A stretch of 64,000 nt of DNA, taken from assembly GCA_018674305.1 (NCBI GenBank), contig JABHAL010000004.1, positions 446 through 64,445 of the forward strand, written 5' to 3'. This DNA comes from Candidatus Falkowbacteria bacterium (GTDB taxonomy: Bacteria > Patescibacteriota > Patescibacteriia > UBA11705 > JABHMO01). Of this stretch, positions 6,445 to 52,680 are shown one piece after another. The position numbers were made by a program, and so were the translations under genes. The notes beneath the pieces are model-generated. The model did no database searches, was not told where the DNA came from, and worked only from the letters and a program-made list of their open reading frames with translations. How positions within the stretch are numbered: the stretch's first letter is position 1; each line of letters opens with the position of its first letter.

Positions 6445-7773
6445 TTATCTTTTTCTCCTATTACTTTTAATTATATAAAACAAAATCAAATACATCACAA
6501 CCATCACCCACCAGCTAATATTAACTTCCACTGACGCCCATTTAAATGCTGAAAATATTTCGACTACTTTGATTACATACCCCAAGACCAACCACGAGAA
6601 CCAACCAATTATTTGACCAAGAAACAAATATACAGATGAAGAGATAAACTGCAAAAAACCAACTAACATAGCGATTGGAATCACTGGCAAAACCAACAGA
6701 TTAACAACTGGTGCCACAATTGAAAGTCGGCCGAACTGAAATAGGATTAACGGTAGAGTAAAAATTATTGCGGATAACGTTGAAGTTAAATTTTCCTGCA
6801 AACCAAATTTCCTTGGCACCCATTTAAATCCTTTAATCAACTTTGGAGATAAATAAACTAAACCTATTGTTGCCAAAAATGAGAGCTGAAAACCAGCATC
6901 CCAAATCAAAATTTTTGGATTAAACAATGCCATCACTACGGCTGACAAAATTAAAACATTACTTACCTTACTTTTTCTGCCTAAATGTTTAGCCAACAAA
7001 ACTATACTACCCATTATAGCGGCCCGAATCACCGACGCGCTGGCACCAGTTAAAATCACAAAGAAAAATAACGCAATTAATATCCCCCATATTGATTTTT
7101 TGCGATTAATTGAAAGTGAAGTGAAAAAATTCAAAAGTAAAATCACGATAATCGTAATATTATAACCAGAAATAGCGATAATATGCGTTATCCCGGTAAC
7201 ATTGAACTTATTTAACAGATCCTGCGGGATCCCCTGTCGTGCCCCCACCAATATCCCACCAACTAAAGCTGCTTGCGGTTCCGCCACTGTACGATTAATT
7301 TTTGTTTGCATCAGCCACTTTAACTTGAGTATGCCGGCAATAAGGATATTGCCGCTTCCGGTTCGTAATGAACGGATTTGTGGCTGATAACACACTGAAT
7401 AAATTCCGTAACGTGCCAAATATCTATCATATTTAAAATTCTCAATTTGCTCGGGAGTTTGCAATTTACATTTAACTTCCAATAAATCACCATATTCAAA
7501 CTCTGGATATAATTGAGTCCGAAGCAAAACTTTTCCTCTAAGTTCTGTCGGTTTAACGGTTAGCTTCTGGTGATCCAATCGAACATCCGGCTCTGTGGAA
7601 ATCACAGCCTGAAAAGTCATCTGTTTATTATTATAAAAAGAAATATGTTTTTCATTAAACTTGGGAGAATAAAATATCGCCCAACTCAATTGAAACAGTA
7701 GGATAACAAAACAAATCAGGAAAAACTTTTGCGACTTTTTAAGTTTCATAAATTCATTATAACAAAAAAGCAC
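6445..7773 (-). CDS. comEC: ComEC/Rec2-family DNA internalization channel (DUF4131 plus competence domain, no beta-lactamase domain)
   Basis: 442 aa. N-terminal TM plus OB-like region, polytopic membrane core with an IIAISGYNI motif. Confidence 0.65.
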   Translation of the reverse strand: MLFCYNEFMKLKKSQKFFLICFVILLFQLSWAIFYSPKFNEKHISFYNNKQMTFQAVISTEPDVRLDHQKLTVKPTELRGKVLLRTQLYPEFEYGDLLEVKCKLQTPEQIENFKYDRYLARYGIYSVCYQPQIRSLRTGSGNILIAGILKLKWLMQTKINRTVAEPQAALVGGILVGARQGIPQDLLNKFNVTGITHIIAISGYNITIIVILLLNFFTSLSINRKKSIWGILIALFFFVILTGASASVIRAAIMGSIVLLAKHLGRKSKVSNVLILSAVVMALFNPKILIWDAGFQLSFLATIGLVYLSPKLIKGFKWVPRKFGLQENLTSTLSAIIFTLPLILFQFGRLSIVAPVVNLLVLPVIPIAMLVGFLQFISSSVYLFLGQIIGWFSWLVLGYVIKVVEIFSAFKWASVEVNISWWVMVVMYLILFYIIKSNRRKR

Positions 7774-9025: not shown

Positions 9026-9187
9026 TGTTTATTCTGTTTTTAAAAAAATGCTTAGTATTTACTGAGTTTTTTTGATTTTCTATTTACAATATAAGACCAA
9101 AACAACCTATTGACATACTCCAAAGAACTTGTTAATCTACTCTATTGAGCCTACTATCTAGGCACAAAAGACTAAACGGAGGATATT

Positions 9188-17903: not shown

Positions 17904-17950
17904 AGAACCTTATAATATTGAACATTTACATTTTATTTTTGGGGGAAAGA

Positions 17951-19471
17951 ATGGAACCGACAACAAGATACGTACTGGTCAATCACGGAGGACCGGATAC
18001 AGACTCTGCTGTAATTAGTTATCTTTGGCACCTTACTTACAAGAAAAGAATCGGCGCTGAAGACGTGGAGTATGTTTTTGTTCCTTCAGGCAAAAGACTA
18101 GAACCACATCTGGTTGAGCCTGGCGACATCGTATTTCATTTGGACACTGGGTATCGCTTTGATCCCGGGACAAATGATTATGATCATCATCAGGATCGAA
18201 AACGCTGGCCAAGTGCAGCTCGAACTATGTTTGAAACATTTACCAAACTGCAAGAAGATCCTATCATCGCAGAGATGGTGGACCTAGCCGATCGAGTTGA
18301 TAGTGGCAACACTGTTAATCAAGAAGATCCCGATGCTCGTTCGACTCGACAAAGTTTCAACGGGGAAGTTACATCTTTCAACACTGGACGAGAAGATAGC
18401 CCAGTTATTCTGATCACCGAACAATCAGGCCCTTGGCAAATTGTAGACCTACTGTCCAACATGGAAGTAGAAAGTAACGAACTCCAAGATCGAGACAAAC
18501 TGATTGTCAGTATGATGATGTTGGAGTCCTGGTACAACAACGAAAAGAAGAGACGGGAAACCAAACAGGCTGACTTCAAGCCGACTCTGGATATTGAAAT
18601 ATTTGATCGTGTAGCTGCCACATTTATCCAGCTTGTTGCTAAAGATAAATGGCTCTATGATGTTGACTTCCGAGAAGTAGAAGATTCTTACATGAGAGCC
18701 ACCCAGGATCGTTTCACTAGCATGACGGAAGCTGCTTTCCAAAGCTTTCAGCATATCCAAGGAGAACCAGTTTTTGAAGAACTTGTATATTTGGTAAATC
18801 TGCTTCGCACATCGAACTCCACGGTTAACAAGAGTGAAGAAGCGGATATGTTCAAAACTCAACTAACTGAGATGTTAGCCGAGTTTAACCAAGGACGTGA
18901 TCATAAAGTTATCCCAATCACCCTTCGAAAGGGACCCTGGGAGGTGGCTGAACTATTTCCAAGTGAGGGATATAGCTTAACTGCCAGAATTCTGTCTGGC
19001 TTGATTATGTTCAAAGCTTGGTACAACAAAAAAACCGTACGAAAAAGAATCAACACTCTGCTAAGTACATCAAACTGGTTTGAGTATAGCGGAATTAAGT
19101 ACGTAGTTGTTCCTGAAACTACTTTTACCACCAAGGTAATTCGTTACCAACTCCGCCGCTATCTTCGCGATGAAGTTGATGTAGCGATAGTGACCTATCT
19201 GGAGTGCGGTACTGGGAAAAAAAGCATTGGCATTACCAGAGTCCAAGATGACGTTGTCAACGGAATGGACGATCTATATCACCAGCTCAAACGAATTGAT
19301 CCACGAGCTGATGTATTCATGTTTCGACCTTCCAAGTTTGTCATTTACATCAAGGACAAGCTAGATATCCTGACGCCACAACGAGTTAGCCAGGAAACAG
19401 TCCGAACGCTGAAACCACTCATTGAGTACTCCGATCACAACTCGGAAAACGCCTTAGCGGTTTCTTCGTGA
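17951..19471 (+). CDS. Large hypothetical protein with N-terminal DHH-phosphoesterase-like motifs
   Basis: NHGGPDTDSAV, LDTG and YDHHQD resemble DHH motifs I-III. No DHHA1 GGGH was found. Confidence 0.4.
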   Translation: MEPTTRYVLVNHGGPDTDSAVISYLWHLTYKKRIGAEDVEYVFVPSGKRLEPHLVEPGDIVFHLDTGYRFDPGTNDYDHHQDRKRWPSAARTMFETFTKLQEDPIIAEMVDLADRVDSGNTVNQEDPDARSTRQSFNGEVTSFNTGREDSPVILITEQSGPWQIVDLLSNMEVESNELQDRDKLIVSMMMLESWYNNEKKRRETKQADFKPTLDIEIFDRVAATFIQLVAKDKWLYDVDFREVEDSYMRATQDRFTSMTEAAFQSFQHIQGEPVFEELVYLVNLLRTSNSTVNKSEEADMFKTQLTEMLAEFNQGRDHKVIPITLRKGPWEVAELFPSEGYSLTARILSGLIMFKAWYNKKTVRKRINTLLSTSNWFEYSGIKYVVVPETTFTTKVIRYQLRRYLRDEVDVAIVTYLECGTGKKSIGITRVQDDVVNGMDDLYHQLKRIDPRADVFMFRPSKFVIYIKDKLDILTPQRVSQETVRTLKPLIEYSDHNSENALAVSS

Positions 19472-23849: not shown

Positions 23850-25190
23850 TCACAAATTCAAAATTCCGCGAGCGACAATCAAACCTGTAGCCGCCGCCCC
23901 AGTAATATTTCCAGAAAGACCTGCACCGTCACCAGCTACATACAAACCCTTAATATTGGTTTGTAGATCTTTTTCTGTTTTTAACTTTGAAGAACGAAGT
24001 TTAATTTCTGGCGCATATAATAAAGTATGTGGCGAAGCAATGCCTGGTAAAACTTGATCCAACATTTCTAAACCTTCTTTAATGTTTTTTACAATTCTAT
24101 GAGGTAAAGCCATAGAAATATCACCCGGTGTTACATCTTTTAGACTTGGAATAACAAAACTTTTACTAATTCTTTCCCAAGTACTACGCCTTCCCTTATA
24201 TAAATCAGCCATTCTCTGCACAATTGGTTTACCTCCTCCAATTGTGGTCGCCAACTTGGCAATTGATTTAGCATAAGCAATTGTATTTTCTACCGGCTCC
24301 GTTAAAGTCACCTCACTCACAAAAGCAAAATTAGAATTTAATGAATTATGATCTGAATTTGAATGTCCATTCACACAAACAAAATCCTTGTATTGTTCTG
24401 CCGCTACATGACCTTTTGGACAAGGACAAAAAGTTCTTACCACATCATCAAAAGTTGGCGTCCTCATCATAAATACCGTTTCATACATTAAATCTGCATG
24501 TTTTTTTAAAACAGCTTCTGGAAATTCTACTCTTACACCCACTTCAACTTTTTCATAGGTGTATGGCAAATTATATTTTTCCGATATTTTTTGTAACCAG
24601 CGAGCCTTAATTCGTCCGGGCGCTAAAATAACTTTGTCGGCAAAAATGTCACCTTTATCTGTTTTCACACCCGTTACACTTGTTCCACTTATAATAATAT
24701 CAATCACTTCAGTTTGATCTTTTATAATCAGCCCTTTATTTAATAAATGATTTTCAAAATTCTCAATTACCTGTGGTAATTTATCACTACCAACATGTCG
24801 CGCTTTGCGCACAAATAATTTAATACTTTTTTTCTTGGCGTCATCTGCTAATCGATTTGCCTCATCAATATCTTTTGGATAATATTCTGCAGTTACACCA
24901 AATCTGGTAAATAATTCATCAACATAATCCAAATACTTTTGATATTCTGCTTCATTATATAAATGTAGCATTTTTTCATGACTTAAAACAGGTGTGTAAT
25001 GCAATTTACCGTCAGAAAAAGAACCAGCTCCACCAATGCCTGACATAACCTCACTTCTTTGTCGATTTTTTATTAAATTACCAAGCTCGATTAAACAAAC
25101 CTTTAGATCTGGCTTTTGATTAACCAATTCATATGCAGCAAACATTCCTGCCGGCCCTCCGCCAACAATGATCACATCAAATTTTTCCAT
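23850..25190 (-). CDS. FAD-dependent oxidoreductase (COG2509-like)
   Basis: VIIVGGGPAGMFAA Rossmann motif. Confidence 0.6.
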   Translation of the reverse strand: MEKFDVIIVGGGPAGMFAAYELVNQKPDLKVCLIELGNLIKNRQRSEVMSGIGGAGSFSDGKLHYTPVLSHEKMLHLYNEAEYQKYLDYVDELFTRFGVTAEYYPKDIDEANRLADDAKKKSIKLFVRKARHVGSDKLPQVIENFENHLLNKGLIIKDQTEVIDIIISGTSVTGVKTDKGDIFADKVILAPGRIKARWLQKISEKYNLPYTYEKVEVGVRVEFPEAVLKKHADLMYETVFMMRTPTFDDVVRTFCPCPKGHVAAEQYKDFVCVNGHSNSDHNSLNSNFAFVSEVTLTEPVENTIAYAKSIAKLATTIGGGKPIVQRMADLYKGRRSTWERISKSFVIPSLKDVTPGDISMALPHRIVKNIKEGLEMLDQVLPGIASPHTLLYAPEIKLRSSKLKTEKDLQTNIKGLYVAGDGAGLSGNITGAAATGLIVARGILNL

Positions 25191-25290
25191 AAATAATATA
25201 ATATTATTTAACACTCTTATTATACTACCACACTAATTTTCGAACCACAACAAAAAAGAGCCTTACAGTGTAGTAAGACTCTTGGTGCGG

Positions 25291-25845
25291 CTAAAAGTGG
25301 CCGCAGTATCCGTCCCAGTTGTCGACTGGGTATTGACTTTCGTCTAAGTTCCACTCACCTGTGTCCTCATCTTCCCAACCTTCACCGCAAGCGTAGCGGT
25401 AGGCCTGTCCTTCCTTCATCCCGAAGTAGAACTGGTGTGAGGCGTTGCGGCCCACCTGGTAAAACATTACCCCTTCCCGCTCCATTGAATACGGTTCAAG
25501 GCTGTCTTCAAACTCCAGATGCATGCGGATCATGGACTCAGCTCTTTCGTCGCCACCGTGCAACTTCTCAGCAAAGTCCTTAGCTGTGGCGTCACGCTTC
25601 GCGTCAACAATCTGATCATCAGCATACATTGCTTTCATCTGATCAATAATTGCCTGGTCTGTGACCAGCTCACGATCACCGAAGCTATTCTTGCGAAAAA
25701 ACACCATGCCGAAAAACGAACCTTCCGAGGTGACCATCTCGTGCTCAACCTGCCAGCCTTCTCCGATCTTGAACCCCTGGGTCTCCAGCGACTGACCATC
25801 GATCTCCACACCGGACCAAAAACTCACGTTCTTCTGCTGATTCAT
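25291..25845 (-). CDS. Hypothetical protein encoded in the GC-rich island
   Basis: 184 aa after trimming to MNQQKN with a GGAGG RBS. No family recognised. A terminator hairpin lies downstream at ~25255-25290. Confidence 0.45.
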   Translation of the reverse strand: MNQQKNVSFWSGVEIDGQSLETQGFKIGEGWQVEHEMVTSEGSFFGMVFFRKNSFGDRELVTDQAIIDQMKAMYADDQIVDAKRDATAKDFAEKLHGGDERAESMIRMHLEFEDSLEPYSMEREGVMFYQVGRNASHQFYFGMKEGQAYRYACGEGWEDEDTGEWNLDESQYPVDNWDGYCGHF

Positions 25846-25952
25846 GGTGAACCTCCAATGTATTATTAAATTTATTCTCTTCAAAAGTCAATCTTGCAAT
25901 TGACTGCTCAAGAGAGTCACCGTTGTCTGACAACGGATCATCTTTGCGTGAG

Positions 25953-26129
25953 TCACCTCTTTTTGACCCTTCCCATTCTGGGCATCCCCCCAGTGGGTTG
26001 CGAACGCATTGCCCGCTCGAACAGGTACTGCTCACGGGTTACGCTTCCACGCTCCCGACCACCAGCAGTAAACCCATTCTGACGAAGAAAACTCGTCGCC
26101 TCAGCCACCAGATTCCGCGCGTTCCGCAT
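25953..26129 (-). CDS. Small basic ORF (58 aa) directly downstream of promoter module 1
   Basis: Hand-translated as MRNARNLVAEATSFLRQNGF...GRVKKR with a GGAG RBS 8 nt upstream. It falls below the ORF-track length cutoff. Confidence 0.3.
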   Translation of the reverse strand: MRNARNLVAEATSFLRQNGFTAGGRERGSVTREQYLFERAMRSQPTGGMPRMGRVKKR

Positions 26130-26150
26130 TGGCTATCTCCTTTTGTTAAG

Positions 26151-26218
26151 CCATCAGAAAAATTAATTTTCATTAATTGCTCTGATGAATGCACAAGTAA
26201 ATGTTACTTATGCACAAG
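26151..26218 (-). promoter_or_regulatory. Promoter-like module copy 1 (conserved core plus direct repeat TGCACAAG x2)
   Basis: Shares catca...ttaattgctctgatga with copies 2-4. An RBS and ORF follow on the minus strand. Confidence 0.45.
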
Positions 26219-26812
26219 AAACGCAATGACAAGGGTTATCCACTTTACCGAGACATTTTCCCCATAATAGTATGACTTAACAACAATGGCTCACTAAAAG
26301 TCCATTGTCCCCTGTCTGAAAGGTTTGTCGCTAAGACTTTACCTTCCTTTTTAAAGAACCCTTTATAACCATAGAACGTGTATGGCTGGTTCTTTTCGTA
26401 ATGGTGCTTGCGTACACCTACGATCGTCCTAATGAACTCAACACTACCTTTTACTAGTGCTGTCTCACCCCATAGCCGGTTGAGCAATATGCTCCCGGCC
26501 TGCCCCTGAGCAACCCTTACACAATTTTTACTGCAAGTTATTGGTCATGTCGACTTAACAAATTACTTACACACTATTTTTTCGCAGTGAACTAGAATCT
26601 CAAATCTATGGCCCTTATCCCATAGACCCTCTAGCTCTGAAGAATAATATTTTCCAACGCTCCTAAGAGTCTGTTAGAAAAATTACTCTTCTCTTCAGGC
26701 TCCCCAGAAAACAACCATTGTCATGTGTTAGACAATAATCGTTTGTGAGTTCTGCCCTCGGTACTGGCTGCTGCGAACAACCTATCCCAGTGGTTTTAGA
26801 CTTTTCGCAAAG

Positions 26813-26878
26813 TCATCACAATAATCAATAAACATAATTACTCTAATGAGCACGCAAACACCTGCTACATGCGCTCGC
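26813..26878 (-). promoter_or_regulatory. Promoter-like module copy 2 (core plus imperfect palindrome gagcacgca...tgcgctc)
   Basis: gtcatcacaataatcaataaacataattactctaatga core. Sits just downstream of the small gene 26882..27064. Confidence 0.4.
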
Positions 26879-26881
26879 TAA

Positions 26882-27064
26882 CTATTTACTTGCACTTGGA
26901 GCCTTACACTCCTTACAACCTAGGCAAGGCGGGCGCCCAAACGGGTATTTTGGACAGTCTACCCGAACAGCAACCTCTCTCAAATACCTCTCATGCTCGT
27001 CTTCAATACTGAAAGGCTCGTCGGTCTCAAAATCCCAACCACTAATCATTTCGCCTTTTCTCAT
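26882..27064 (-). CDS. Small Cys-rich (zinc-ribbon) protein
   Basis: 60 aa from MRKGEM with an AAGGAG RBS. C-terminus CPKYPFGRPPCLGCKEC. Confidence 0.45.
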   Translation of the reverse strand: MRKGEMISGWDFETDEPFSIEDEHERYLREVAVRVDCPKYPFGRPPCLGCKECKAPSASK

Positions 27065-27080
27065 CACTATCTCCTTTATT

Positions 27081-27150
27081 AGAGTCATCAAAATAATCAA
27101 TTTTTATTAATTACTCTGATGATTGCACAAGCTCTAGGAGCTTGTGCAAG
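27081..27150 (-). promoter_or_regulatory. Promoter-like module copy 3 with the perfect palindrome GCACAAGCTC-TAG-GAGCTTGTGC
   Basis: Read on the minus strand as TTGTGC ... TAATTAAT ... AAGGAG ... ATG directly upstream of 26882..27064. Confidence 0.5.
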
Positions 27151-27837
27151 TAGGGAGATGACTGTAGGTGGACAATCATCAGTGCGACACTCACTCCCGA
27201 TCAAGAGAGTCTCCACCACCGCTGCTTAACGGCTGTCGCTTTGACCACACATCCTGGATTCTTGGCCACCCGCCTTGACCGCCCGAAGGCGAGGCAGGAG
27301 GCCTCCATCCAAGTTTCAAGTTAAGGGAGTGTGCGCCCCCTATAGCCTCAGTCAGTTTCTTGCATCTCCGCCCGGCCAAAGGCTTTGACACATGCGAGGG
27401 GTTGGCCTCGCTTCCGCTTTACATCGTATAAGACCCTTCCCCTGGGCCAAACACGCATTGCGGCATGGCCCGACACTGACTGATTTGCTCTACCTTTACC
27501 TTTAACATAGAATTTTATGTTAAATTCCCTGTGCTGGTAGCAGAGCGGGTCCCCTCCCGTAAGCTTGCGACTCACGACAGACAACCACCAACTTTACCGA
27601 CTCCACCTTATTGGCGTAAGGCAAGCCACTAACTTCCTTTGCTCCGACCAAGAGCTTGGACCACATCTTCTCAAGGTGACTCCCCCTGTCATTAGGGGCC
27701 CTGTTCACGATAACTCCGAAGAGCTTCTCGCTAGAAAATGTGGTGGAGATTTGGATAACAGGCAAGCCTGATACCCTGCCTTCCCCGGGATAGGGTAGAC
27801 ATATCGTTCCTTACGGAACTATCAGGCACTCCACAGC

Positions 27838-27902
27838 CATCGTAATAATCAAAGCTTTATTTAATTGCTACGATAGGTGCGCGAATATTTTTATTCACGC
27901 AA
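27838..27902 (-). promoter_or_regulatory. Promoter-like module copy 4 with the palindrome TGCGCGAATA-TTTTT-TATTCACGCA
   Basis: ccatcgtaataatcaaagctttatttaattgctacgata core. Upstream (on the minus strand) of the ORF-poor GC-rich core. Confidence 0.4.
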
Positions 27903-28519
27903 GAGTTTATTTGCGCAGTGGTAAAATGCTTTCATTTACCTGTCTAGGTTCTCGCTAAGAGTAGCCTAGACTTTTTGTATTTTGTTCTACAAAACCTTTA
28001 CTTCCTCGTATCACCTCCAATGGACGTTATCGATCTTTGTTTGGTGAGGTCAGCCAAGGCTTCAACCTGGGAAAGCAGCTGCGCGCTACCAACCGGTGCA
28101 ATATAGAACATAAATTGATAATGACCACATCTCATCCCCCAAGCCCCGAAGAACTTTAGGAAATGAGTCTAGTCTCATTAAGTTTATCTCTAAATCCCTC
28201 TGTAATATGTTGCCAGATAAATAAATTTGAATTAATGGCATTTATATAAGCGAGGGATATATTTCCGGAAACAAGGGTTCAGTTGTTACACCTACATCCT
28301 TATTTCTAGAATACAAGCAAATTGCCTGTACTGGTCGAGAACAAAAAACTTTTTTTTACTCAACATAGAAGTATAGCATGCATTTTAAAACTTGTCAAGT
28401 ACCGTCAACAAAAGTTTACTCGTTTCTACTTTTTTTATTTAATTTTAGCTAAATCATAACACTGAAAACTGTTGAAACGCTTCGTCGTAAATCGCGAGCA
28501 GAATCGCTTTAATTTTCCT

Positions 28520-28556
28520 AAAACAAAAACAGCCCCTTTAACAGGGCTGTTTTTAG
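28520..28556. terminator. Intrinsic terminator downstream of ileS (cagccctgttaaaggggctg plus T-run)
   Basis: Hairpin with run read directly. Confidence 0.7.
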
Positions 28557-28568
28557 AATATGCTTATC

Positions 28569-31454
28569 TTATTTTTCAAGAGTTATCTTAATTGTTTCAT
28601 CATTAACCTTAACTTCGGTTTCTCCGCCCCCTTCTTCAACTTCAGTTAATAATGTAGCTTGTTTTAATTTTTCAACCATATCTTCATTAGCGAATAATTT
28701 TTTAAGTTGTTCCCCTTTTGTAGAATAAACTAATTTAACTTGATCCGTTCGAGTTAAACCCTGATTTTTACGAAGATTGTTTATTTGCCTGGTTAACTCA
28801 CGAACTAAACATTCAAGTTTTAATTCATCCGTTAATTCAATGTTTAATCCCACCTTTACGTTTGAAGCTTCTTTAACAACACGATCTGCTTGTTCTCTCA
28901 CCTCTTTGGTGTGTTTTACTTCTTTGACATTAAGTTCTTCCGCAATAATATTTTCTAATTGGTTATCAAGTTTTGTACCTTGATAACGAAGATACTGTAA
29001 TGGCTGTCGAACCTTAATTTGTTTTTCATCACGCGCAGACAATCCAAGCTCCACAACTTGCCGAGCTAATTCCATATCTTTCAAAACATTTTCATCAATT
29101 AATTTTTTATCAGACACTGGCCATTCTGCTAAATGCACTGATTCCTTTTCGCCATCAAGCTTTTGATAAAAACTATCCGCTGCAAACGGCATAAAAGGTG
29201 CGATTAATTTCACAAATTCATTTAAGACATAATTTAAAGTCGCTACTGCATTTTCTTTATCTGCTCCTTCAGTTTTGAATCTATCTCGTGAACGACGAAC
29301 ATACCAAGTAGATAGCTCATCAATAAAATCCATAATCTTTCGCCCACTTTCAAAAACATGATATTCCTCCAAATCTTTCGTCACATCCCGAATTAGTAAA
29401 TTTAACTTTGAAACAATCCAAACATCCAAAACATTCTTACTTTTCACTTTTAACTTTTCACTTTTAACTTCTCCATACATTCCATAAAAATTAACAACGT
29501 TACCGAGCAACATTACAGTCTTACGAAGGACATCTTTAACTGCATTCTCATCAAAATTCTTTGGCTCTCCCGGTTGATTAATTGTATACAAATGCATACG
29601 CAGAGCATCAACTCCATACTTATCAGCAATCATCCATGGATCTATAACGTTTCCTTTTGACTTACTCATTTTCTTTCCATCTTTATCACGAATATGTCCA
29701 AGGCAAATCACATTTTTATAACTAGCACCTTTACCAAGAAAAGTTGAAACTGCCAGCAACGTATAAAACCAACCACGAGTTTGATCAATCGCCTCAGAAA
29801 TATATTCAGCTGGATATTGCTCTCCACTATCAACTAATTCCTTGTTTTCAAAAGGATAATGATGCTGAGCAAATGGCATTGACCCTGCATCAAACCAACA
29901 ATCACAAACATCAGAAGTTCTCTTCATCTGACCGCCACAACCACAACCATATTCTAAAGTATCAACGTATGGTCGATGAAAATCCAACTCACCCTTACCA
30001 TTTTTTGGTAATGCACCTGTCTTTTTCTCAAGCTCGGCAAAGTCACCAATCACTTCAAACTTTTCACACTTATCACATTCCCAAATCGGAAGTGGTGTGC
30101 CCCAATATCGTTGTCTGGAAATAGCCCAATCTTTAACGTTTTCTAACCACTCACCAAATCTTCCAGTTTTAATATGGTCAGGCACCCAATTTATCTTTGC
30201 ATTATTTTTTATTAACTCATCTTTCAACGCAGACATTTTTATAAACCAAGAATCCTTTGCGTAATAAAGCAATGGGCTATCACAGCGCCAACAAAACGGA
30301 TAATCATGTTCATACATTCGTTCTTTCAATAACAAACTACGTTCTTCTAAATCTTCAACAATTTCTTTTTCAACTTTAGAACTTTTAACAAACTTTCCGG
30401 CCCACTTCTGAACGCTTTCAACAAATTTTCCACCTTCATCAACAGTATGAACAAACGGTAAATCATTTTCTAGACCAAATTGAAAATCATCTTCACCATA
30501 CATTACTGCAGTATGCACAATTCCAGTTCCGTCTTCGGTAGTGACAAAATCTGCCTTACCCACGAACCAGGCCTTTTTATCGCCAGCATCCACCGCACCA
30601 GGAAATAATGGTTCATATTCTATTCCCAATAAATCTTTTCCTATTAATTTTTCAACAACTTCAACCTTGTCTTCAAAAACTTCGCCAAGCAATGATTCAG
30701 CCAGAATATAAAATTCATTTTCAACTTTAACTTTCACATAACTGATACTTTCACCAACCGCAAGAGCAATATTTCCCGGCAAAGTCCAAGGAGTTGTCGT
30801 CCAAGAAAGAATGAAGGTGTCTTTTTGATCTTTGACTTTAAATTTGATATAGATTGAAGTTTCCTCCACATTTTTGTAACCTTGCGCAACTTCGTGAGAA
30901 GATAGTGCAGTTCCACAGCGCGGGCATTGCGGGACAACTTTATATCCTTTGTAAACTAAACCCTTCTCATGCGCCTGATTAAAAATCCACCACAATGATT
31001 CAATATAATCATTAGAATAAGTTGTATATGGGTTTTCCATGTCCACCCAGAATGCAATTCTTCGAGTCAGTTCTTCCCAATCTTTTTTGTATCGCCAAAC
31101 GCTTTCTTTGCATTTAACATTAAATTCTTCAATTCCAAATTTTTCAATGTCCGGTTTACCAGAAATTTTTAATTCTTTTTCAACCTGAAGTTCAACAGGC
31201 AACCCATGAGTATCCCAGCCCGCTTTTCTTTCCACATGAAAACCCTGCATTGTTTTGTAGCGTGGAATTACATCTTTGAACGCTCGTGCTAATACATGGT
31301 GAATACCAGGCTTACCGTTAGCAGTTGGTGGGCCTTCAAAAAAAACAAAATTACCTTTAGTCGATTTTTTGTCTAAAGTTTTTTGGAAAATATTTTTTTC
31401 TTCCCATTTTTCTATTAATTTTTCTTCATTTTGAGCGAATTGTGATTTAGCCAT
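28569..31454 (-). CDS. ileS: Isoleucine--tRNA ligase
   Basis: 961 aa. HIGH-like GIHHVLAR, KMSKSKGN, and the IleRS-specific DWAISRQRYWGTPLP. Confidence 0.85.
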   Translation of the reverse strand: MAKSQFAQNEEKLIEKWEEKNIFQKTLDKKSTKGNFVFFEGPPTANGKPGIHHVLARAFKDVIPRYKTMQGFHVERKAGWDTHGLPVELQVEKELKISGKPDIEKFGIEEFNVKCKESVWRYKKDWEELTRRIAFWVDMENPYTTYSNDYIESLWWIFNQAHEKGLVYKGYKVVPQCPRCGTALSSHEVAQGYKNVEETSIYIKFKVKDQKDTFILSWTTTPWTLPGNIALAVGESISYVKVKVENEFYILAESLLGEVFEDKVEVVEKLIGKDLLGIEYEPLFPGAVDAGDKKAWFVGKADFVTTEDGTGIVHTAVMYGEDDFQFGLENDLPFVHTVDEGGKFVESVQKWAGKFVKSSKVEKEIVEDLEERSLLLKERMYEHDYPFCWRCDSPLLYYAKDSWFIKMSALKDELIKNNAKINWVPDHIKTGRFGEWLENVKDWAISRQRYWGTPLPIWECDKCEKFEVIGDFAELEKKTGALPKNGKGELDFHRPYVDTLEYGCGCGGQMKRTSDVCDCWFDAGSMPFAQHHYPFENKELVDSGEQYPAEYISEAIDQTRGWFYTLLAVSTFLGKGASYKNVICLGHIRDKDGKKMSKSKGNVIDPWMIADKYGVDALRMHLYTINQPGEPKNFDENAVKDVLRKTVMLLGNVVNFYGMYGEVKSEKLKVKSKNVLDVWIVSKLNLLIRDVTKDLEEYHVFESGRKIMDFIDELSTWYVRRSRDRFKTEGADKENAVATLNYVLNEFVKLIAPFMPFAADSFYQKLDGEKESVHLAEWPVSDKKLIDENVLKDMELARQVVELGLSARDEKQIKVRQPLQYLRYQGTKLDNQLENIIAEELNVKEVKHTKEVREQADRVVKEASNVKVGLNIELTDELKLECLVRELTRQINNLRKNQGLTRTDQVKLVYSTKGEQLKKLFANEDMVEKLKQATLLTEVEEGGGETEVKVNDETIKITLEK

Positions 31455-33423: not shown

Positions 33424-34608
33424 ATGACGACTGAACTGGTAAGAAAAGAACCTAGTTCGTTGACAACTTTAACTGAAGAAGAACAACCCAGTATTTTTTG
33501 GAAATTTAGGCAAATTTTCGAAGCTGATTGGTGTACTGATAGAAAAATCTACTGGTATGATGTCCGCTTCAATCGTACTCGTCTCTGGCAAATTACTCAA
33601 CTGAATCGAGTATCCAAGAAACAAGACAAACTGTTGGGTATTTTTCCTGGTGAACCGGATGTCGACGTTCTTAAGCTAGCAATTGCTGGAGCAAACATTG
33701 AACGTATTTTAACTGGCGTACGCTGGGAGATTTACTCTGACTTTGCCTGCAATCAACTGGTCACTATGGGCCGCTTTGATGTGATTGATTTGGTACCCGC
33801 TGATCGAAGTAAATTGGAACAGCTGTTCAGATCAAATCATGTTGGCGTAAAATCATCAATCAAAGACTGGGACTTTGATGGGATCTTCCGAACTCATATT
33901 TGTCCTAAATGTCAAAAGGCCTACAGTCAAGATCTGCTAATGTTTATCCCTGATTGGATGCACTGTAGCAGTTGTGGTTTTTCTCTAAGTAAAGATAGCG
34001 GAGCCTTTTCTGCTCTGCTTAAAAACTTACTCGTTCAACTAGCCAGATCAAATGAATTCCGCTTTCCCGTTGAAGACAAAACAAATATTCCAGTGGCTAT
34101 TCAACTGATTGACGTACTTCCTACTCCGCTGATTGCCCATATTATTGGTGAACTTCTTGGCGGTGCACCTTTATCACATTCGTATGGTATGGGTTTAGGG
34201 ATGGAGCCTAATGATTTAATCACTTGCTTGGAAATGAGCCTTTTTCACAAAATAAGAATTCCAATCATTCGTGATGGGTTCATTGATTTTGTATCAGTTT
34301 TCTTTGATGAGCAAATTGCGCATTATCAAAATGGTGGCTCATTACCCAAAATGCCTATGCCCGAAATGACAGAGAGTCAACATCGGGAGTATCTTACCAA
34401 AAACTGGAGCGAGACAAAGCAACATTTCGTTGATCAAACCATGTTGCTATCTAGTTTATCTGACTGGTTTCTTGGCCGTAAGGTGACTAAGGCTGAAGAG
34501 TTCCAAAATACTGGCGCTTTTAAGAAAGCTTTACACGGATATGCTTATAATCTGGAAACACTAATTGAATTACTATGGCAAGAAAAAATGGAGGCTAGCC
34601 ATGAATGA
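33424..34608 (+). CDS. Hypothetical Zn-ribbon protein, paralog A
   Basis: 394 aa with shared GRFD and WDFDG plus CxxC...CxxC modules also found in the downstream gene. Confidence 0.5.
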   Translation: MTTELVRKEPSSLTTLTEEEQPSIFWKFRQIFEADWCTDRKIYWYDVRFNRTRLWQITQLNRVSKKQDKLLGIFPGEPDVDVLKLAIAGANIERILTGVRWEIYSDFACNQLVTMGRFDVIDLVPADRSKLEQLFRSNHVGVKSSIKDWDFDGIFRTHICPKCQKAYSQDLLMFIPDWMHCSSCGFSLSKDSGAFSALLKNLLVQLARSNEFRFPVEDKTNIPVAIQLIDVLPTPLIAHIIGELLGGAPLSHSYGMGLGMEPNDLITCLEMSLFHKIRIPIIRDGFIDFVSVFFDEQIAHYQNGGSLPKMPMPEMTESQHREYLTKNWSETKQHFVDQTMLLSSLSDWFLGRKVTKAEEFQNTGAFKKALHGYAYNLETLIELLWQEKMEASHE

Positions 34609-35653
34609 TCTGATTCGTTTGAAGGATGTACGTTTGCCAGCTGTGCCCGTGGAACTTCCACCTCTTGAAGGTGAAGGTTTGAACCATGGTAAATTAATTC
34701 TCGCACCTGGAGCTAGGAGCGCCGAACAAGTTATTGCGAATTACCGAAACAAGTTTTCACCAGAATCGCAACGTTGGTTCAGGCGTTACTACCTAAAAGC
34801 ACATCGCAATCGAGATCGTACTTCGATTCGCTATGCTTGGAACCTTGATGCGCCGTTGACTGATCGCACCGTCGGGGTTTTCAAGGGTGATGACTTGGCC
34901 GCTGCGCAGATTCTGATCGGTAACAACATGGCCGGCACGTCGATGGGTTCTATTTCCTGGCACTTGTGCGAAGATCGAGACGGAGAAGAACCGATTGCTC
35001 TCGGTCGCTTCGACCCCTGGAGCTTGCTTCAGGACATTTCGCCTGCTGATATTGTCCGCTTGCGTGATCAACGAGGCTTAGTCCCTGATCTTGATCGTTG
35101 GGACTTTGACGGTTTCTACATGCGCCGAACTTGTCCTCAGTGCAACACCAAGATTTCTATCAACATGTTTGCTTTCAACATAGACTCTGCGCAATGTGAC
35201 AAGTGTGGCGTTCGGCCCTTCCTATCAAGGGCACTTGGCAACATGCTTCGAATGGCTCTTCCGGCAGTGACCGGGAAAGGCAATCAAATCCTTTCCGCTG
35301 ATGATGCCTTACTCCATACTGTTGAATGGCTTGGCGGAGTTCATGCCGGAACTGAGCATTTGCACCAGGAAGAATTGCCCGATGAGATTACTCCACAAAT
35401 CATGATTGATGGACTACTGAAAAATTCTCGACTTCTGGCTTCTGCGCCAGAAGGACGATTTGCTCTATCTCCGGTTGTAACGGCTCATCTAGCTGATGAT
35501 CATGATTCACGTTCCCTGGTTATCGGTGCAGCCAACACTTTGGCTCGAGTCATCCAGGAAGGTGGCCCATTTACTGACACCCATGCAGCGACTGCACGCC
35601 TACTTCAATTAGTAGAACGTGATGCGCTAAAGGCGCAAAGAGAACTTACCTAA
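34601..35653 (+). CDS. Hypothetical Zn-ribbon protein, paralog B (translationally coupled, higher GC)
   Basis: Start MNDLIRL with a GGAGG RBS, overlapping the upstream stop (ATGAATGA). Shares LGRFD, WDFDG and CPQC...CDKC with paralog A. Confidence 0.5.
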   Translation: MNDLIRLKDVRLPAVPVELPPLEGEGLNHGKLILAPGARSAEQVIANYRNKFSPESQRWFRRYYLKAHRNRDRTSIRYAWNLDAPLTDRTVGVFKGDDLAAAQILIGNNMAGTSMGSISWHLCEDRDGEEPIALGRFDPWSLLQDISPADIVRLRDQRGLVPDLDRWDFDGFYMRRTCPQCNTKISINMFAFNIDSAQCDKCGVRPFLSRALGNMLRMALPAVTGKGNQILSADDALLHTVEWLGGVHAGTEHLHQEELPDEITPQIMIDGLLKNSRLLASAPEGRFALSPVVTAHLADDHDSRSLVIGAANTLARVIQEGGPFTDTHAATARLLQLVERDALKAQRELT

Positions 35654-37024: not shown

Positions 37025-37101
37025 TGGTGGACCCGGCAGGGATCGAACCTGTGACCTCCTCGGTGCAAGCGAGGCGCTCTAGCCAACTGAGCTACGGGCC
37101 C
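37025..37101 (-). tRNA. tRNA-Ala (anticodon UGC)
   Basis: A hand-folded cloverleaf gives the anticodon loop CTTGCAC, a G3:U70 pair and a GTTCGATCC T-loop. CCA is encoded. Confidence 0.85.
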
Positions 37102-43963: not shown

Positions 43964-44074
43964 GTCCTGGCGACGACCTACTTTCCCACTGTGTAGTATC
44001 ATCGGCGCTACAGGGCTTAACTGCTGTGTTCGGGATGGGAACAGGTGTGGCCCCTGCGCTAGAGTCACCAGGAC
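43964..44074 (-). rRNA. rrf: 5S ribosomal RNA
   Basis: The reverse complement matches 5S conserved blocks (CCTGGCGAC...CATCGGCGCTAC...TTCGGGATGGGAACAGGTG). A flanking processing stem cagagacatagtcctgg / ccaggactatgtctctg is present. Confidence 0.85.
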
Positions 44075-44159
44075 TATGTCTCTGTTTAAATAGAATATTT
44101 GATTCAAGTATAATAATTACAATTTGTAATCCGAAAATGTGAATATTAACATTATAGTG

Positions 44160-47140
<2,981 letters not shown>

Positions 47141-49495: not shown

Positions 49496-49580
49496 TGGTG
49501 GGCGGGAAAGGACTTGAACCTTCACGGCCGAAGCCACCAGTTCCTAAGACTGGCGTGTCTACCAATTTCACCACCCGCCC
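49496..49580 (-). tRNA. tRNA-Leu (anticodon UAG)
   Basis: A hand fold gives acceptor GGGCGGG/CCCGCCC, anticodon loop CTTAGGA, a long variable arm and encoded CCA. Confidence 0.8.
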
Positions 49581-49808: not shown

Positions 49809-50687
49809 ATGGCTGACAAAAAAATTGCACTTGTTTGGTTCAAACCTCGCAATGTGCACACAAAAGAGGAAAGCTTTCAAAAATACATTGAAACACTAGC
49901 AGCAAAAGCTGCAAAAATTCGAAAGCAAATTGGCATCAACTATTTGCCACATCAGTCAGAATACATTGGAGTGGTTGGCGGTGATGGTCCTCAGATTGAA
50001 AGAGCAAAAGAGTTTGCCCATCTAGGAATTCCGATTTACGGAATCAATATGGGAACATATGGATTTCTTCTCAATAACCACGGTGATAACGATGATATTC
50101 GTGCAGCGATTGAAGCTGCCGTCTGGATCAAATTCCCTTTGCTGGATATTGAAATTGAATACCTTGATGGCTCAATTGATAAGACTCTGGCTTTTAACGA
50201 CCTATACACAAAAACCTCTGGGGTTCAAACCGCAAAACACAGAGTTTTTGTGAATGGTGAAAACATTATTCCTCAGGTCTTTGATGATCGGGAAACTTTC
50301 GCCATGGGTGACGCTGTAATTGTTTGCTCTGCAGGTGGTTCGACTGCCTACAACCGAGCAGCCGGTGGAAAAGTTTTTTCTCCCAACGCTAAGGTTTTTG
50401 GCATTACCATTGCATCTCCGTTTCCGATTCCATTCAAACCGATTCAAGTGCCTGATACCAGTGAAGTTGTCATTGAAGTTCTGGAAGATGAAAAGCGTCA
50501 ACACATGATTATTGCGGATAATGAAGCCTACACCGATGTACGAAAAGTTACTATCCGCAAGTCTGAATTGACGGTTACCCTGGGCTTCAAGCCTGGTGAA
50601 ACGCATCAGGACAAAGTCAAGAAAATGGAACAAAACCTAAGAGCTTGGAAAAAGAAAGCTCAAGAAAACGGAGGCCAAAATGCTTGA
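49809..50687 (+). CDS. nadK: NAD+ kinase
   Basis: GGDG motif and AGGSTAY. Confidence 0.65.
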   Translation: MADKKIALVWFKPRNVHTKEESFQKYIETLAAKAAKIRKQIGINYLPHQSEYIGVVGGDGPQIERAKEFAHLGIPIYGINMGTYGFLLNNHGDNDDIRAAIEAAVWIKFPLLDIEIEYLDGSIDKTLAFNDLYTKTSGVQTAKHRVFVNGENIIPQVFDDRETFAMGDAVIVCSAGGSTAYNRAAGGKVFSPNAKVFGITIASPFPIPFKPIQVPDTSEVVIEVLEDEKRQHMIIADNEAYTDVRKVTIRKSELTVTLGFKPGETHQDKVKKMEQNLRAWKKKAQENGGQNA

Positions 50688-51969
50688 CATGAAGCGCCTC
50701 AAAGAAGAGCGCAAAAAGATCAAGAAGATTCTCTACACACCTGATGAAGTCAAGGCAATCATTGCCGGAATCAAGCCGATCATTCAGGGAATTTCCGATG
50801 AAGATGTGTACAAGTTCACGATGCAACAGGGCGCCTATCTCGGACAGTCTTTCAATGGCTCAAAGAACTTTTGCGATCTGGATGTAGAGTACGACTTTAA
50901 CGATCGGAAAGGTACGGTTTACCCAGAAGGCTTTGCCGATGCAGTTACGCGCCAGGTCCGACTCATGGGCAATATGCGTCTCCAAGACTGGGAACGAAAA
51001 GGCTTTGAAAGCATGTCCTGGTTCAAGCGAAGCTATCTTGATTTTCTCAGTAGCTATCGCTATGACCCGAGTGAAGTTACAGTTCGACAAGACAGAAAGG
51101 GGCGCCTTTTTATCAAAGTAAACGGCCCCTGGTATCGTACGATCCTGTGGGAAGTTCCCATCCTGGCGATTGTCAGCGAGCTGTACTTCCACATGACCGG
51201 ACAGACTCCGAACGTTGAAACTTTTGAGACCAACCTGGTCAACAAGACCTTCAACTTCAATCGTCCTGGCTTCACTTACATCGACTTTGGTACCCGTCGT
51301 CGAGTTTCTTACCTGACCCAGGAAGCAGTTTGTCTCTATATGGCACAGACCATTCCTGACAACTTCCTTGGTACGAGCAATTGCTATATTGCTTTCAAGA
51401 ATGGACTCAAGGCGTTCGGTACTCATGCTCATGAATGGTTCATGGCACACCAAGCGATGTTTGGTACTCGCATGGCCAACGAAATGGGTTTAGAATCCTG
51501 GGTTCGTATGTACGATGGTGCACTGGGCATTGCCCTTACCGACACTTTCACCACTGCGAACTTCCTTGAGGCTTTTGGTAAGCGTTACGCTGAGCTTTTC
51601 ACTGGAGTTCGTCACGACAGTGGCTGTCCATTTGAATTTGGTGAAGCGATAATCAAACATTACGAAAGGCTGGGAATTGACCCCAAAAGCAAGGCCATCG
51701 TCTTTAGCGATGGACTGGATGACAAGCTGGCCGTTGAACTTCACGAAAAGTTCTATGGCCGTATCGGCGTATCCTTTGGTATCGGAACATTCTTATCCAA
51801 TGACGTTGGATTTAAGCCCCTATCCATTGTGATCAAAATCAGCAAATGTCGATGGTTAGGAACTGAACGCTGGATCTACGTAGTCAAACTGTCCGACAAT
51901 CCAGCCAAACACCACGGTCCGCCAGAGGCTATTACCAATACTCAGTATGACATTGGTTTAGCAGCTTAA
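50680..51969 (+). CDS. pncB: Nicotinate phosphoribosyltransferase
   Basis: DFGTRRR, VRHDSG, and C-terminal GIGTFL motifs. Confidence 0.8.
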   Translation: MLDMKRLKEERKKIKKILYTPDEVKAIIAGIKPIIQGISDEDVYKFTMQQGAYLGQSFNGSKNFCDLDVEYDFNDRKGTVYPEGFADAVTRQVRLMGNMRLQDWERKGFESMSWFKRSYLDFLSSYRYDPSEVTVRQDRKGRLFIKVNGPWYRTILWEVPILAIVSELYFHMTGQTPNVETFETNLVNKTFNFNRPGFTYIDFGTRRRVSYLTQEAVCLYMAQTIPDNFLGTSNCYIAFKNGLKAFGTHAHEWFMAHQAMFGTRMANEMGLESWVRMYDGALGIALTDTFTTANFLEAFGKRYAELFTGVRHDSGCPFEFGEAIIKHYERLGIDPKSKAIVFSDGLDDKLAVELHEKFYGRIGVSFGIGTFLSNDVGFKPLSIVIKISKCRWLGTERWIYVVKLSDNPAKHHGPPEAITNTQYDIGLAA

Positions 51970-52185
51970 ACTTAAACATAACCCTACTTTCACACTTGGA
52001 AGTAGGGTTTTTTTGTCACAAACAAACGACTTTGTTTTCCCAAAGGGACCAGATTGTGGTAAATTAAAACAAAAACTACACAAAACAGTTGACTTTATGT
52101 GAAAAGTATGTTGTAATTATTAATCGTTTACTAGGTACCTACTACCTTAGACTAGATATCTAAAAAGTAGGGAAGGAGTTCTTTT

Positions 52186-52680
52186 ATGAGTACCGTAACA
52201 ATTGGCCTGTTTGGAACTTGTGGTGGCAGTGTTTGGCGGGATACTTTCATGAAACGCTATGAACAAGAAGGTATCGCCTTTTTCAACCCAGTGGTTGAAG
52301 ACTGGGATCCCAGCATGGCCGAGGTGGAAGCTGAACATCTGGCAAACGATGAAATCATCCTGTTCCCTGTAACCAAAGAGTCCTATGGCTCTGGTTCATT
52401 GGCAGAGGTTGGTTTCTCCATTCTCCAGGCCATTCGCCTGGATGACCGGCGCGACTTTGTCATCCTGATCGACATGGACCTGGATGAAAGCTTGGATGAC
52501 CCGATTGCACGGAAAGACTCTATCAGGGCCCGCGCCCTGGTCAAGCAACATCTGAAGAAGCAACGGCTCAAGAACGTGTACTTGGTTGAGTCGTTGGAAG
52601 AAATGCTGGAAGTAAGTGTGCAACTGCACGAAGCCGCCAGCATCCACAGTGGACTGAGGAGATTCAATCCTCACCGCTAG
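52186..52680 (+). CDS. Nucleoside 2-deoxyribosyltransferase-like protein (paralog of 48069..48536)
   Basis: Shares the W..E...DEIILFPV..ES.GS..E.G pattern. Confidence 0.4.
   Translation: MSTVTIGLFGTCGGSVWRDTFMKRYEQEGIAFFNPVVEDWDPSMAEVEAEHLANDEIILFPVTKESYGSGSLAEVGFSILQAIRLDDRRDFVILIDMDLDESLDDPIARKDSIRARALVKQHLKKQRLKNVYLVESLEEMLEVSVQLHEAASIHSGLRRFNPHR

Follow-up and report, generated by a model that had tools for sequence, protein, structure and literature searches.

A GC-rich locus of a Candidatus Falkowbacteria genome with a recurrent two-hairpin junction and large structured RNAs

The subject of this study is a GC-rich island in a 64,000-nucleotide stretch of DNA (hereafter the window) that carries the lineage label Candidatus Falkowbacteria (P0001). 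The island lies between the genes for a flavin adenine dinucleotide (FAD)-dependent oxidoreductase and isoleucyl-tRNA synthetase (IleRS, the product of ileS), and an initial annotation, made from the bare sequence, had interpreted it as a set of early promoters with distinct operators. All of its elements are read on the minus strand, and from promoter to terminator they follow each other in the order RNA-A, module 4, RNA-B, module 3, p60, module 2, RNA-C, module 1, p58, module 5 and p184, where the modules are pairs of adjacent hairpins (H1 and H2) and p60, p58 and p184 are open reading frames (ORFs) of 60, 58 and 184 amino acids. The positions and the ribosome-binding sites of these three ORFs are as they had been annotated. 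For comparison we used the contigs that carry orthologues of p184, namely the loci L001, L005, L007, L021/L022 and L023, of which L021 carries the label Kuenenbacteria. The promoter of the locus is kept in L001, L005 and L021, and the arrangement predicts a single minus-strand transcription unit that would run from one σ70 promoter to one terminator.

Table 1. Features of the locus and its flanks (window coordinates; H1 and H2, the two hairpins of a module; bits, scores of an H2 covariance model)
Feature	Coordinates	Strand	Evidence
FAD-dependent oxidoreductase gene (flank)	23850-25214		Pfam
Intrinsic terminator ending the locus	25246..25283	-	terminator scan: 11-bp stem, then TTTTTGTTGTG
p184, 184-aa protein, constant 3′ gene of the locus	25291..25845	-	
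Module 5 (H1 25936-25920, H2 25916-25875)	25875..25936 (repeat copy, 25875-25945)	-	29.3 and 28.9 bits in two scans
p58, 58-aa basic ORF	25953..26129	-	
Module 1 (H1 26216-26190, H2 26189-26150)	26150..26216	-	43.8 bits
RNA-C, ~595-nt probable structured RNA, 42% GC	26217..26811	-	z-score
Module 2 (H1 26878-26853, H2 26850-26812)	26812..26878	-	25.5 bits
p60, 60-aa Cys-rich ORF; AGGAG 6 nt 5′ of ATG	26882..27064	-	
Module 3 (H1 27147-27125, H2 27123-27084)	27084..27147	-	40.7 bits
RNA-B, ~690-nt structured non-coding RNA, 53.5% GC	27150..27835	-	alignment, RNAalifold, z-score
Module 4 (H1 27901-27878, H2 27877-27836)	27836..27901	-	30.8 bits, covariance model without window sequence
RNA-A, ~460-nt structured leader RNA, AT-rich (38.5% GC)	27902..28363	-	alignment, RNAalifold, z-score
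σ70 promoter of the locus, TTGACA-17-TATACT	28370..28398	-	best match of promoter scan, 11/12 + TG
ileS, isoleucyl-tRNA synthetase (flank)	28569-31454		Pfam annotation of the 99.97%-identical locus L007

Folding of 14 modules from three genomes revealed that each consists of two adjacent hairpins on the sense (minus) strand, separated by 0-3 nt and together spanning about 65-70 nt, and that such a pair stands at each junction of the locus. The first hairpin, H1, has a GC-rich stem of 9-14 bp, the sequence of which changes within two or three themes, including GCRCAAG…CUUGYGC and GGCGAAUCA…UGAUUCGCC. The second, H2, is a stem of 14-19 pairs with a conserved apex (RAUUAAU/AUURAUU), whose basal part varies by compensatory substitutions (CAUCAGAG/UUUUGAUG, UACCAGAG/CUUCUGGUA, CACUAAAG/UUUUAGUG and CUUGAG/UUCAAG). 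When 21 copies of H2 from five lineages were aligned, 92.5% of the cells were found to be paired, as against 31-52% with the partners slid; 12 of the 18 pairs have changed on both sides, and none of 500 shuffles equalled the observed score. The initial annotation had recognised this repeat as a conserved core followed by a variable palindrome, in four copies. The repeat and all four places hold; however, the core is itself a hairpin of 17-19 bp, namely H2, and the total is five, as module 5 had been overlooked. Similarly, what had been read at the first copy as a direct repeat of TGCACAAG is in fact an imperfect palindrome that forms the hairpin GCAUAAGUAA/UUACUUGUGC.

The pairing in these hairpins has a pronounced strand preference. 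All but one of the 21 H2 copies (20/21) have a G·U wobble at pair 10-37 (G10·U37), and over 14 copies the sense strand has 40 G·U pairs versus 3 on the antisense strand, with the sense-strand fold being the stabler one in all of these except one (13/14). H1 shows the same tendency, with nine G·U pairs in the sense and none in the antisense orientation. Furthermore, the gap that separates the two conserved half-sites of H2 ranges from 4 to 10 nt. An operator in duplex DNA could not give rise to a conserved wobble or to such a strand asymmetry, nor would it tolerate the variable spacing; selection thus acts on the sense strand folded as a single strand.

The placement of H2 points in the same direction. 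Its end lies 6-12 nt upstream of the Shine-Dalgarno sequence in most coding cassettes (22 nt at module 5), while the non-coding units begin directly after it. Two of the related loci have a canonical TTGACA-17-TATAAT promoter followed by an H2 without an accompanying H1 (promoter at L005:9003-9031 with H2 at 9045-9090, and promoter at L023:2237-2265 with H2 at 2306-2349). There, H2 is a part of the 5′ untranslated region (UTR); H1 belongs to the end of the preceding unit. Taken together, the position of H2 next to Shine-Dalgarno sequences and non-coding units, and downstream of promoters, suggests that it acts as RNA rather than as DNA.

These observations bear directly on the original proposal that the modules are internal early-type promoters, each with the conserved core as its core promoter and the variable palindrome as the operator to which a DNA-binding regulator of its own would bind. 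A module does precede every unit and, as judged by eye, H1 usually has TTGYGC or TCGCGC as the last bases of its 3′ arm, with TAATNA exactly 15 nt downstream. Yet this candidate -10 element lacks the invariant final T in most copies, and a σ70 scan of the gene strand, which recovers the promoter of the locus and canonical promoters with 17-nt spacing in the same loci, finds no promoter-like site at any of the modules of the window. Nor would a promoter be expected to show a covarying hairpin with strand-biased and conserved G·U pairs, half-sites of variable spacing, or a position downstream of real promoters as in L005 and L023; moreover, the supposedly different palindromes turn out to be variants of the two or three H1 themes with their sense-only G·U pairs. 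We accordingly find the promoter proposal unsupported and quite unlikely. On the strength of its conservation pattern and its position, we take the module to be an RNA leader or junction element and not a promoter.

The two stems could alternatively constitute a cis-acting transcription element, in which H1 would serve as a pause site or terminator and H2 in antitermination or attenuation, much like the put RNAs of phage HK022, thereby setting the read-through into the next cassette. The nascent transcript would indeed present two adjacent stems at each junction, and H1 is a strong GC-rich one. However, H1 is not followed by a U-tract, so that it is no canonical intrinsic terminator, and the modules that come after a promoter retain H2 but not H1. 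We regard this explanation as improbable.

An H2 covariance model built from the copies of other genomes only was run over the whole 64 kb, on both strands and with filters off. Its top five matches are the H2 hairpins of modules 1, 3, 4, 5 and 2, all on the minus strand and scoring from 43.8 to 25.5 bits. The other matches with E < 0.4 are weaker plus-strand ones at two of these same five sites, with none outside them, and the next unrelated site has an E-value of 0.42. Across seven sources all H2 matches are inside an island, and neither the rest of the window nor the flanks of four related loci contain a copy. Module 5 sits directly upstream of p184, and in L001 and L021, too, the homologue of p184 is preceded by a copy of this type. 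Such confinement is unlike that of selfish dispersed repeats, be they repetitive extragenic palindromic (REP) elements, miniature inverted-repeat transposable elements (MITEs) or Correia-type repeats, that have settled in a gene cluster of ordinary horizontal origin or in what is left of a prophage or plasmid. As such an explanation would have it, these are repeated palindromic units of small size in an island of foreign composition; but the units keep a constant place with respect to Shine-Dalgarno sequences and the borders of cassettes, several lineages have the locus at one and the same site, and it has no similarity to phages or plasmids, all of which render this origin very unlikely. A TIGR or CRISPR-like array was also considered and rejected, as the units are spaced by hundreds of nucleotides and have no associated protein.

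A further H2-like hairpin (31.9 bits) is found at L021:7332-7370, upstream of the RNA-A promoter of that locus and by the gene of a TrmB-family regulator, with a second canonical promoter (~7212-7240) lying upstream of it; it may represent a decayed cassette.

The cassette RNA-B aligns with L001:8928-9600 and L005:5965-6625 at a column identity of 88%, which far exceeds the 49-72% amino-acid identity of the neighbouring p184 protein. RNAalifold predicts for this alignment a structure of 220 pairs in 29 helices, closed by a helix of its 5′ and 3′ ends. In this structure 96.5% of the cells are paired as against 41-46% with the partners slid, compensatory double changes are seen at 22 pairs as against 0-4 in the slid versions, and none of 500 shuffles was as good; the fold of the window sequence has a z-score of -7.4. 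A protein-coding gene was rejected for this region: the substitutions lack three-base periodicity (39/39/40 and 15/24/20), the insertions and deletions are mostly not multiples of three and the longest open frames are not conserved. We note that the 73-81-residue "proteins" P0004 and P0005 of the public databases are spurious ORFs on RNA-B (window 27520-27765, minus strand), i.e. an annotation error; a protein search with such an ORF returned only the known lineages.

Searches of RNA-B against Rfam 15 recovered no family for the copy in the window or those of the related islands, even at permissive thresholds. More generally, nothing in the island reached the gathering score, nothing credible was found at E ≤ 10 in the interval 25150-28650 and nothing at E ≤ 1 in the islands of L001, L005, L021 and L023, while ARAGORN detected no transfer-messenger RNA (tmRNA). 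RNase P RNA, tmRNA, an rRNA fragment and a group I or group II intron were rejected on the basis of these searches and of the deletion of RNA-B in L021. In the latter locus (L021:8298-8345), intact modules enclose a mere remnant of RNA-B, ~45 nt in length, in which its 5′ and 3′ ends are joined; therefore, RNA-B is an accessory and not an essential element. The deletions in L021 appear to run between short direct repeats.

Further copies of RNA-B were found neither in GTDB genomes nor in JGI metagenomes or IMG/VR: searches with RNA-B, RNA-A and H2 returned only the L001 contig and chance matches among the genome contigs, three chance matches among the metagenome contigs and nothing among the viral contigs. 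Likewise, nhmmer and the covariance model R2 yielded no credible homologue of RNA-B in L021, L023 or region C of the window, the covariance model giving a weak match of 9.4 bits at L021:8774-8899, and we found no description of RNA-B or of the locus in the literature. Comparative sequence evidence thus gives good support to RNA-B being a previously undescribed structured non-coding RNA of ~690 nt. The initial annotation had overlooked such large structured RNAs in the ORF-free GC-rich parts of the island.

The leader of the locus, RNA-A, is 74-78% identical to its counterparts in L005 and L021, and RNAalifold predicts for it 124 pairs, 13 of them with compensatory changes, at a z-score of -5.4. 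It has no match in Rfam; an ORF that is open across it in the window is interrupted in L021. RNA-C folds with a z-score of -8.3 on the sense strand versus -2.2 on the antisense strand, and its region holds only a doubtful 80-residue ORF with a TTG start and no Pfam match. It is probably the third large structured RNA of the locus, and is presented here as a candidate only.

The related loci contain additional units of this kind. After the remnant of RNA-B in L021 comes a distinct ORF-free unit of ~650 nt (L021:8417-9072) with a z-score of -9.0, which shares with the 3′ domain of RNA-B a motif of the form UGUGGUCAAAG-helix-GCC-hairpin-GGUGG. As the covariance-model score is only the above-mentioned 9.4 bits, the possible kinship of the two is a lead and not a result. 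Short GC-rich units of 160-250 nt without ORFs also lie between modules at L005:6692-6935, L005:6998-7208, L023:94-254 and L023:600-808, with z-scores of -4.2, -1.2, 0.0 and -4.0, respectively. The second of the L005 units (7000-7208) is homologous to the L023 unit at 600-808. These short units may be small RNA cassettes.

We then considered the setting of the island and its counterparts. At 46.8% GC the segment 25220-28200 is well above the other 2,981-bp segments of the window outside the rRNA genes (mean 37.7%, standard deviation 3.2, maximum 45.3; z = 2.8), with individual 200-bp segments within it reaching 54-58%, while the two flanking genes have 34.7% and 35.6% GC. The GC-rich island proposed from the sequence is therefore borne out by the computed values. 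The accompanying figures need small corrections: a hand count of 39 G+C in the 60 positions of 27241-27300 is by computation 38, still high, and the ~33% given for the surrounding genome holds for no more than the immediate flanks, the GC content of the entire window being 38%. The absence of an integrase or transposase from the island was likewise confirmed, and there is none among the Pfam-annotated genes within ~10 kb either. The suggested phage or plasmid remnant, on the other hand, gains no support: blastn searches of phage and plasmid collections with the island gave no match, and neither PHROGs nor the scans of IMG/VR viral contigs nor fold comparison revealed any phage or plasmid similarity.

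The p184 orthologue is located between ileS and the FAD-dependent oxidoreductase gene in L001, L005 and L007, and next to ileS and/or a DUF218 gene in L021 and L023. The interval bearing it is GC-rich on an AT-rich background in every one of the related loci. The shared site thus marks the locus as a stable chromosomal feature of a small clade of Falkowbacteria-like bacteria rather than a recent insertion. It had been stated at the outset that synteny with relatives, as ordinary chromosome, would speak against the first interpretation; this is so in part, in that the site is common to several related lineages while the content is mosaic.

This mosaicism is apparent from several comparisons. 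Between the window and L005, IleRS is 90% and the FAD-dependent oxidoreductase 94% identical, as against 49% for p184; between the window and L001 the corresponding values are 50%, 79% and 72%. Thus, the phylogeny of p184 conflicts with that of the genes that flank it. The GC content at third codon positions (GC3) is 0.44-0.63 in the island genes versus 0.20-0.27 in the host genes. The window and L005, close as they are, have only RNA-A, RNA-B and p184 as cassettes in common; L005 has in addition two short non-coding units, an operon of 141-, 71- and 99-residue proteins, a 112-residue membrane protein and a MYG1-family protein. Finally, where BLAST finds homology between islands, the limits of the blocks coincide with modules (positions 704, 724, 1495, 1509, 2447 and 2686 in island coordinates, in which the H2 copies are at 724-765, 1478-1517, 2412-2451 and 2685-2726). 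The foreign look of the composition thus stands as first described, and the genes of the island give the impression of exchange rather than of simple inheritance.

Cassettes that have the same orientation, that are mostly promoterless behind one promoter, that turn over fast between close relatives and that have their borders at hairpins recall recombination sites folding as single-stranded DNA, such as attC or the hairpins of HUH/Y1 enzymes, in which case a recombinase encoded elsewhere would act on the modules. The strand specificity of the hairpin is in line with this, the folding strand being G-rich and probably the lagging-strand template. Against it, neither the island nor the set of Pfam-annotated genes within ~10 kb includes an integrase, transposase or HUH gene, and the pattern of conservation is the reverse of that of attC: the apex is conserved and the base covaries, and there are no RYYYAAC/GTTRRRY boxes. 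The promoters just 5′ of H2 in L005 and L023 fit an element of the 5′ UTR better than a cassette border, and conserved G·U wobbles are met more typically where RNA is recognised. We consider such sites unlikely.

The proteins of the cassettes offer few clues. No Pfam, PHROG or PADLOC family was recovered above noise for p60, p58 or p184. The first of these is restricted to the lineage of the window and L007, while homologues of p58 can be aligned in L001 and L021, where they lie ahead of the p184 homologue. Only a handful of orthologues of p184 are present among ~15 billion proteins, being those in L001, L005, L021 and L023. Its C-terminal ~130 residues define a family of 234 remote proteins from metagenomes, in which fusions to WG repeats occur; the genomic contexts of distant relatives proved uninformative. 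An AlphaFold2 model of p184 (mean predicted local distance difference test score, pLDDT, of 76) has no significant structural neighbour, and no PDB sequence neighbour was found. A cassette gene of L005 (L005:9597-10481, 55% GC) encodes a member of the MYG1/UPF0160 family of DHH-type exonucleases, with 53% identity to a Magasanikbacteria protein and ~50% to many gammaproteobacterial proteins. Small acidic Cys-rich cassette proteins of L005 and L023 (L005:7746-7961, L023:387-602 and L023:1575-1847) have in common a CxCGSG…CC motif, which we take to resemble the metal-binding motif of the SEC-C domain; the L005 protein has no match in Pfam, in a scan that covered the L005 member.

Elsewhere in the window, GC-rich patches (41-47% GC) of plus-strand genes are seen at 17918-19471, 33424-35653 and 49809-52680, whereas the genes of the window are otherwise almost all on the minus strand. 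They contain three large ORFs without a Pfam family and an NAD-salvage cluster of an NAD kinase, a nicotinate phosphoribosyltransferase (NAPRTase) and a deoxyribosyltransferase-like gene, and they may be further acquired DNA; the module is absent from all three of them. The window also has 23S and 5S rRNA genes at 43965-47140 and no 16S gene, implying that the rRNA operon is unlinked, as well as a tRNA-Ala gene at 37025-37101 and a tRNA-Leu gene at 49496-49580.

Bringing these strands together, the interpretation that we hold with slightly more belief than doubt is that the modules are RNA junction hairpins that are processed or read by one factor, that the cassettes are co-controlled through them and that exchange takes place at H2. 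Under this interpretation, the locus would be transcribed as one long precursor, in which H2 would be recognised by a common factor, either a protein that binds RNA in a sequence-specific manner or a nuclease specific for double-stranded RNA, of which RNase III is an example. The precursor would thereby be cut or stabilised into separate RNAs, each with an H2 at its 5′ end and an H1 at its 3′ end, such that H1, which closes the upstream cassette, would protect the 3′ end of the upstream product, and H2, which heads the downstream cassette, the 5′ end of the downstream product. All the cassettes might in this manner be controlled together through H2. At the same time, the ~40 nt of H2 DNA, being common to every cassette, could supply the homology for the swap, gain and loss of cassettes, and recombination at these sites would account for the mosaic, GC-rich and phylogenetically incongruent content of the island. 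The role of H2 as RNA and its role in the exchange of DNA are mutually compatible.

Several points weigh against this interpretation. Its functional steps, namely co-transcription, cleavage or binding at H2, co-regulation and recombination at H2, are predictions from sequence, as is any function of RNA-A, RNA-B and RNA-C. The TTGYGC-N15-TAATNA pattern, weak and seen by eye, nevertheless recurs at a constant position in most modules, and these could therefore contain weak internal promoters. The sense strand is also the G-rich strand, as seen from the negative GC skew of the plus strand, which makes it the probable template of the lagging strand; the same strand bias would therefore be expected of a hairpin in single-stranded DNA. 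The H2 copies resemble each other, and this blurs the ends of the BLAST blocks such that crossover points cannot be read from them. The covariation of RNA-B comes from three sequences, with 3-5 lineages in the databases searched, and RNA-C is seen only in the lineage of the window, without a homologue in the other loci compared. Lastly, a clearly coding segment of the MYG1 gene of L005 (600 nt) also folds with a z-score of -6.6, uncommonly low for coding sequence, and therefore a z-score alone is no proof of a structured RNA.

A more far-reaching possibility, which we offer as speculative and rather unlikely, is that the locus is a dedicated cassette platform of the candidate phyla radiation (CPR), an "RNA integron" of sorts, in which H2 would be both the point of exchange for the capture of cassettes and the RNA leader that allows their processing and expression. 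Among its cargo there would be large ornate RNAs of a new class, represented by RNA-B, RNA-C and the unit of L021, and these RNAs would provide accessory, exchangeable functions, for example in symbiont-host interactions or against phages.

Bacterial non-coding RNAs of more than 500 nt that have no known function are few, and they have repeatedly led to new biology. To these the locus adds at least RNA-B as a well-supported case, along with a structured leader of 460 nt and two more candidates; none of them is in Rfam, and they all come from the CPR, which has been little explored. The arrangement of protein- and RNA-coding cassettes behind one promoter, separated by the same covarying two-hairpin junction and apparently shuffled there, points to a simple way in which a reduced genome could keep a small exchangeable accessory locus. 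It also gives a concrete RNA element for the study of processing or regulation in organisms that are not yet cultivable.

The locus can be compared with several known systems. Long RNase III hairpins of about 17-20 bp lie between the cistrons of the early mRNAs of phage T7 and in the spacers of rRNA operons, and such sites require no conserved sequence. H2 is like them in that its 14-19 pairs amount to about two turns of double-stranded RNA between the units of one predicted transcript; products cut there would retain a terminal stem, and the structured RNAs are bracketed by hairpins as the rRNAs are. It differs from them in its conserved apical stem and conserved wobble pair, and cleavage is in the present case a prediction. 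A leader hairpin that is bound by one post-transcriptional regulator is exemplified by the operator of the MS2 coat protein. H2 similarly stands a few nucleotides upstream of the ribosome-binding sites of many genes, which would place them all under one factor; however, it also precedes non-coding RNAs, and its binding protein is hypothetical. The module also has a two-stem outline like that of the put RNA of HK022, to which any closer likeness would be conjectural.

With integrons the locus shares the mostly promoterless cassettes of uniform orientation behind one promoter, imperfect palindromes that fold on one strand and a rapid turnover; it differs from them in having no integrase and no R''/R' core sites, in the conservation of the apex of the hairpin rather than its base and in that some of the cassettes are large non-coding RNAs. 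As for the latter, RNA-B resembles OLE, GOLLD, ROOL (a large ornate bacterial non-coding RNA; PMC12286853), HEARO and raiA in being longer than 600 nt, multi-branched, closed by a helix of its 5′ and 3′ ends and more conserved than the neighbouring proteins. It is also, like these large ornate RNAs, an accessory element, with a narrow distribution and a deletion in one lineage, and its locus has a mobile flavour. It is set apart by matching no Rfam model of them even at E ≤ 10 and by its restriction to three lineages.

In function, the modules also resemble the promoter-early stem-loop (PeSL), a composite terminator/promoter motif of T4-like phages (PMC2839356, PMC4122927) that is defined by a conserved early-promoter sequence joined to a stem-loop (PMC4122927). 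Both are short conserved stem-loop motifs that flank small, variable and mostly unknown genes in a hyperplastic region. In T4-like phages the borders of insertions, deletions and replacements between close relatives fall at the motif, just as the homology blocks end at the modules here, and both have been proposed to mediate modular shuffling by homologous recombination. They part ways in that the PeSL is an early promoter acting at the level of DNA in a phage, whereas the module is a covarying RNA hairpin with G·U pairs and without a promoter consensus, in a chromosomal locus of a CPR bacterium in which several of the cassettes are themselves non-coding RNAs.

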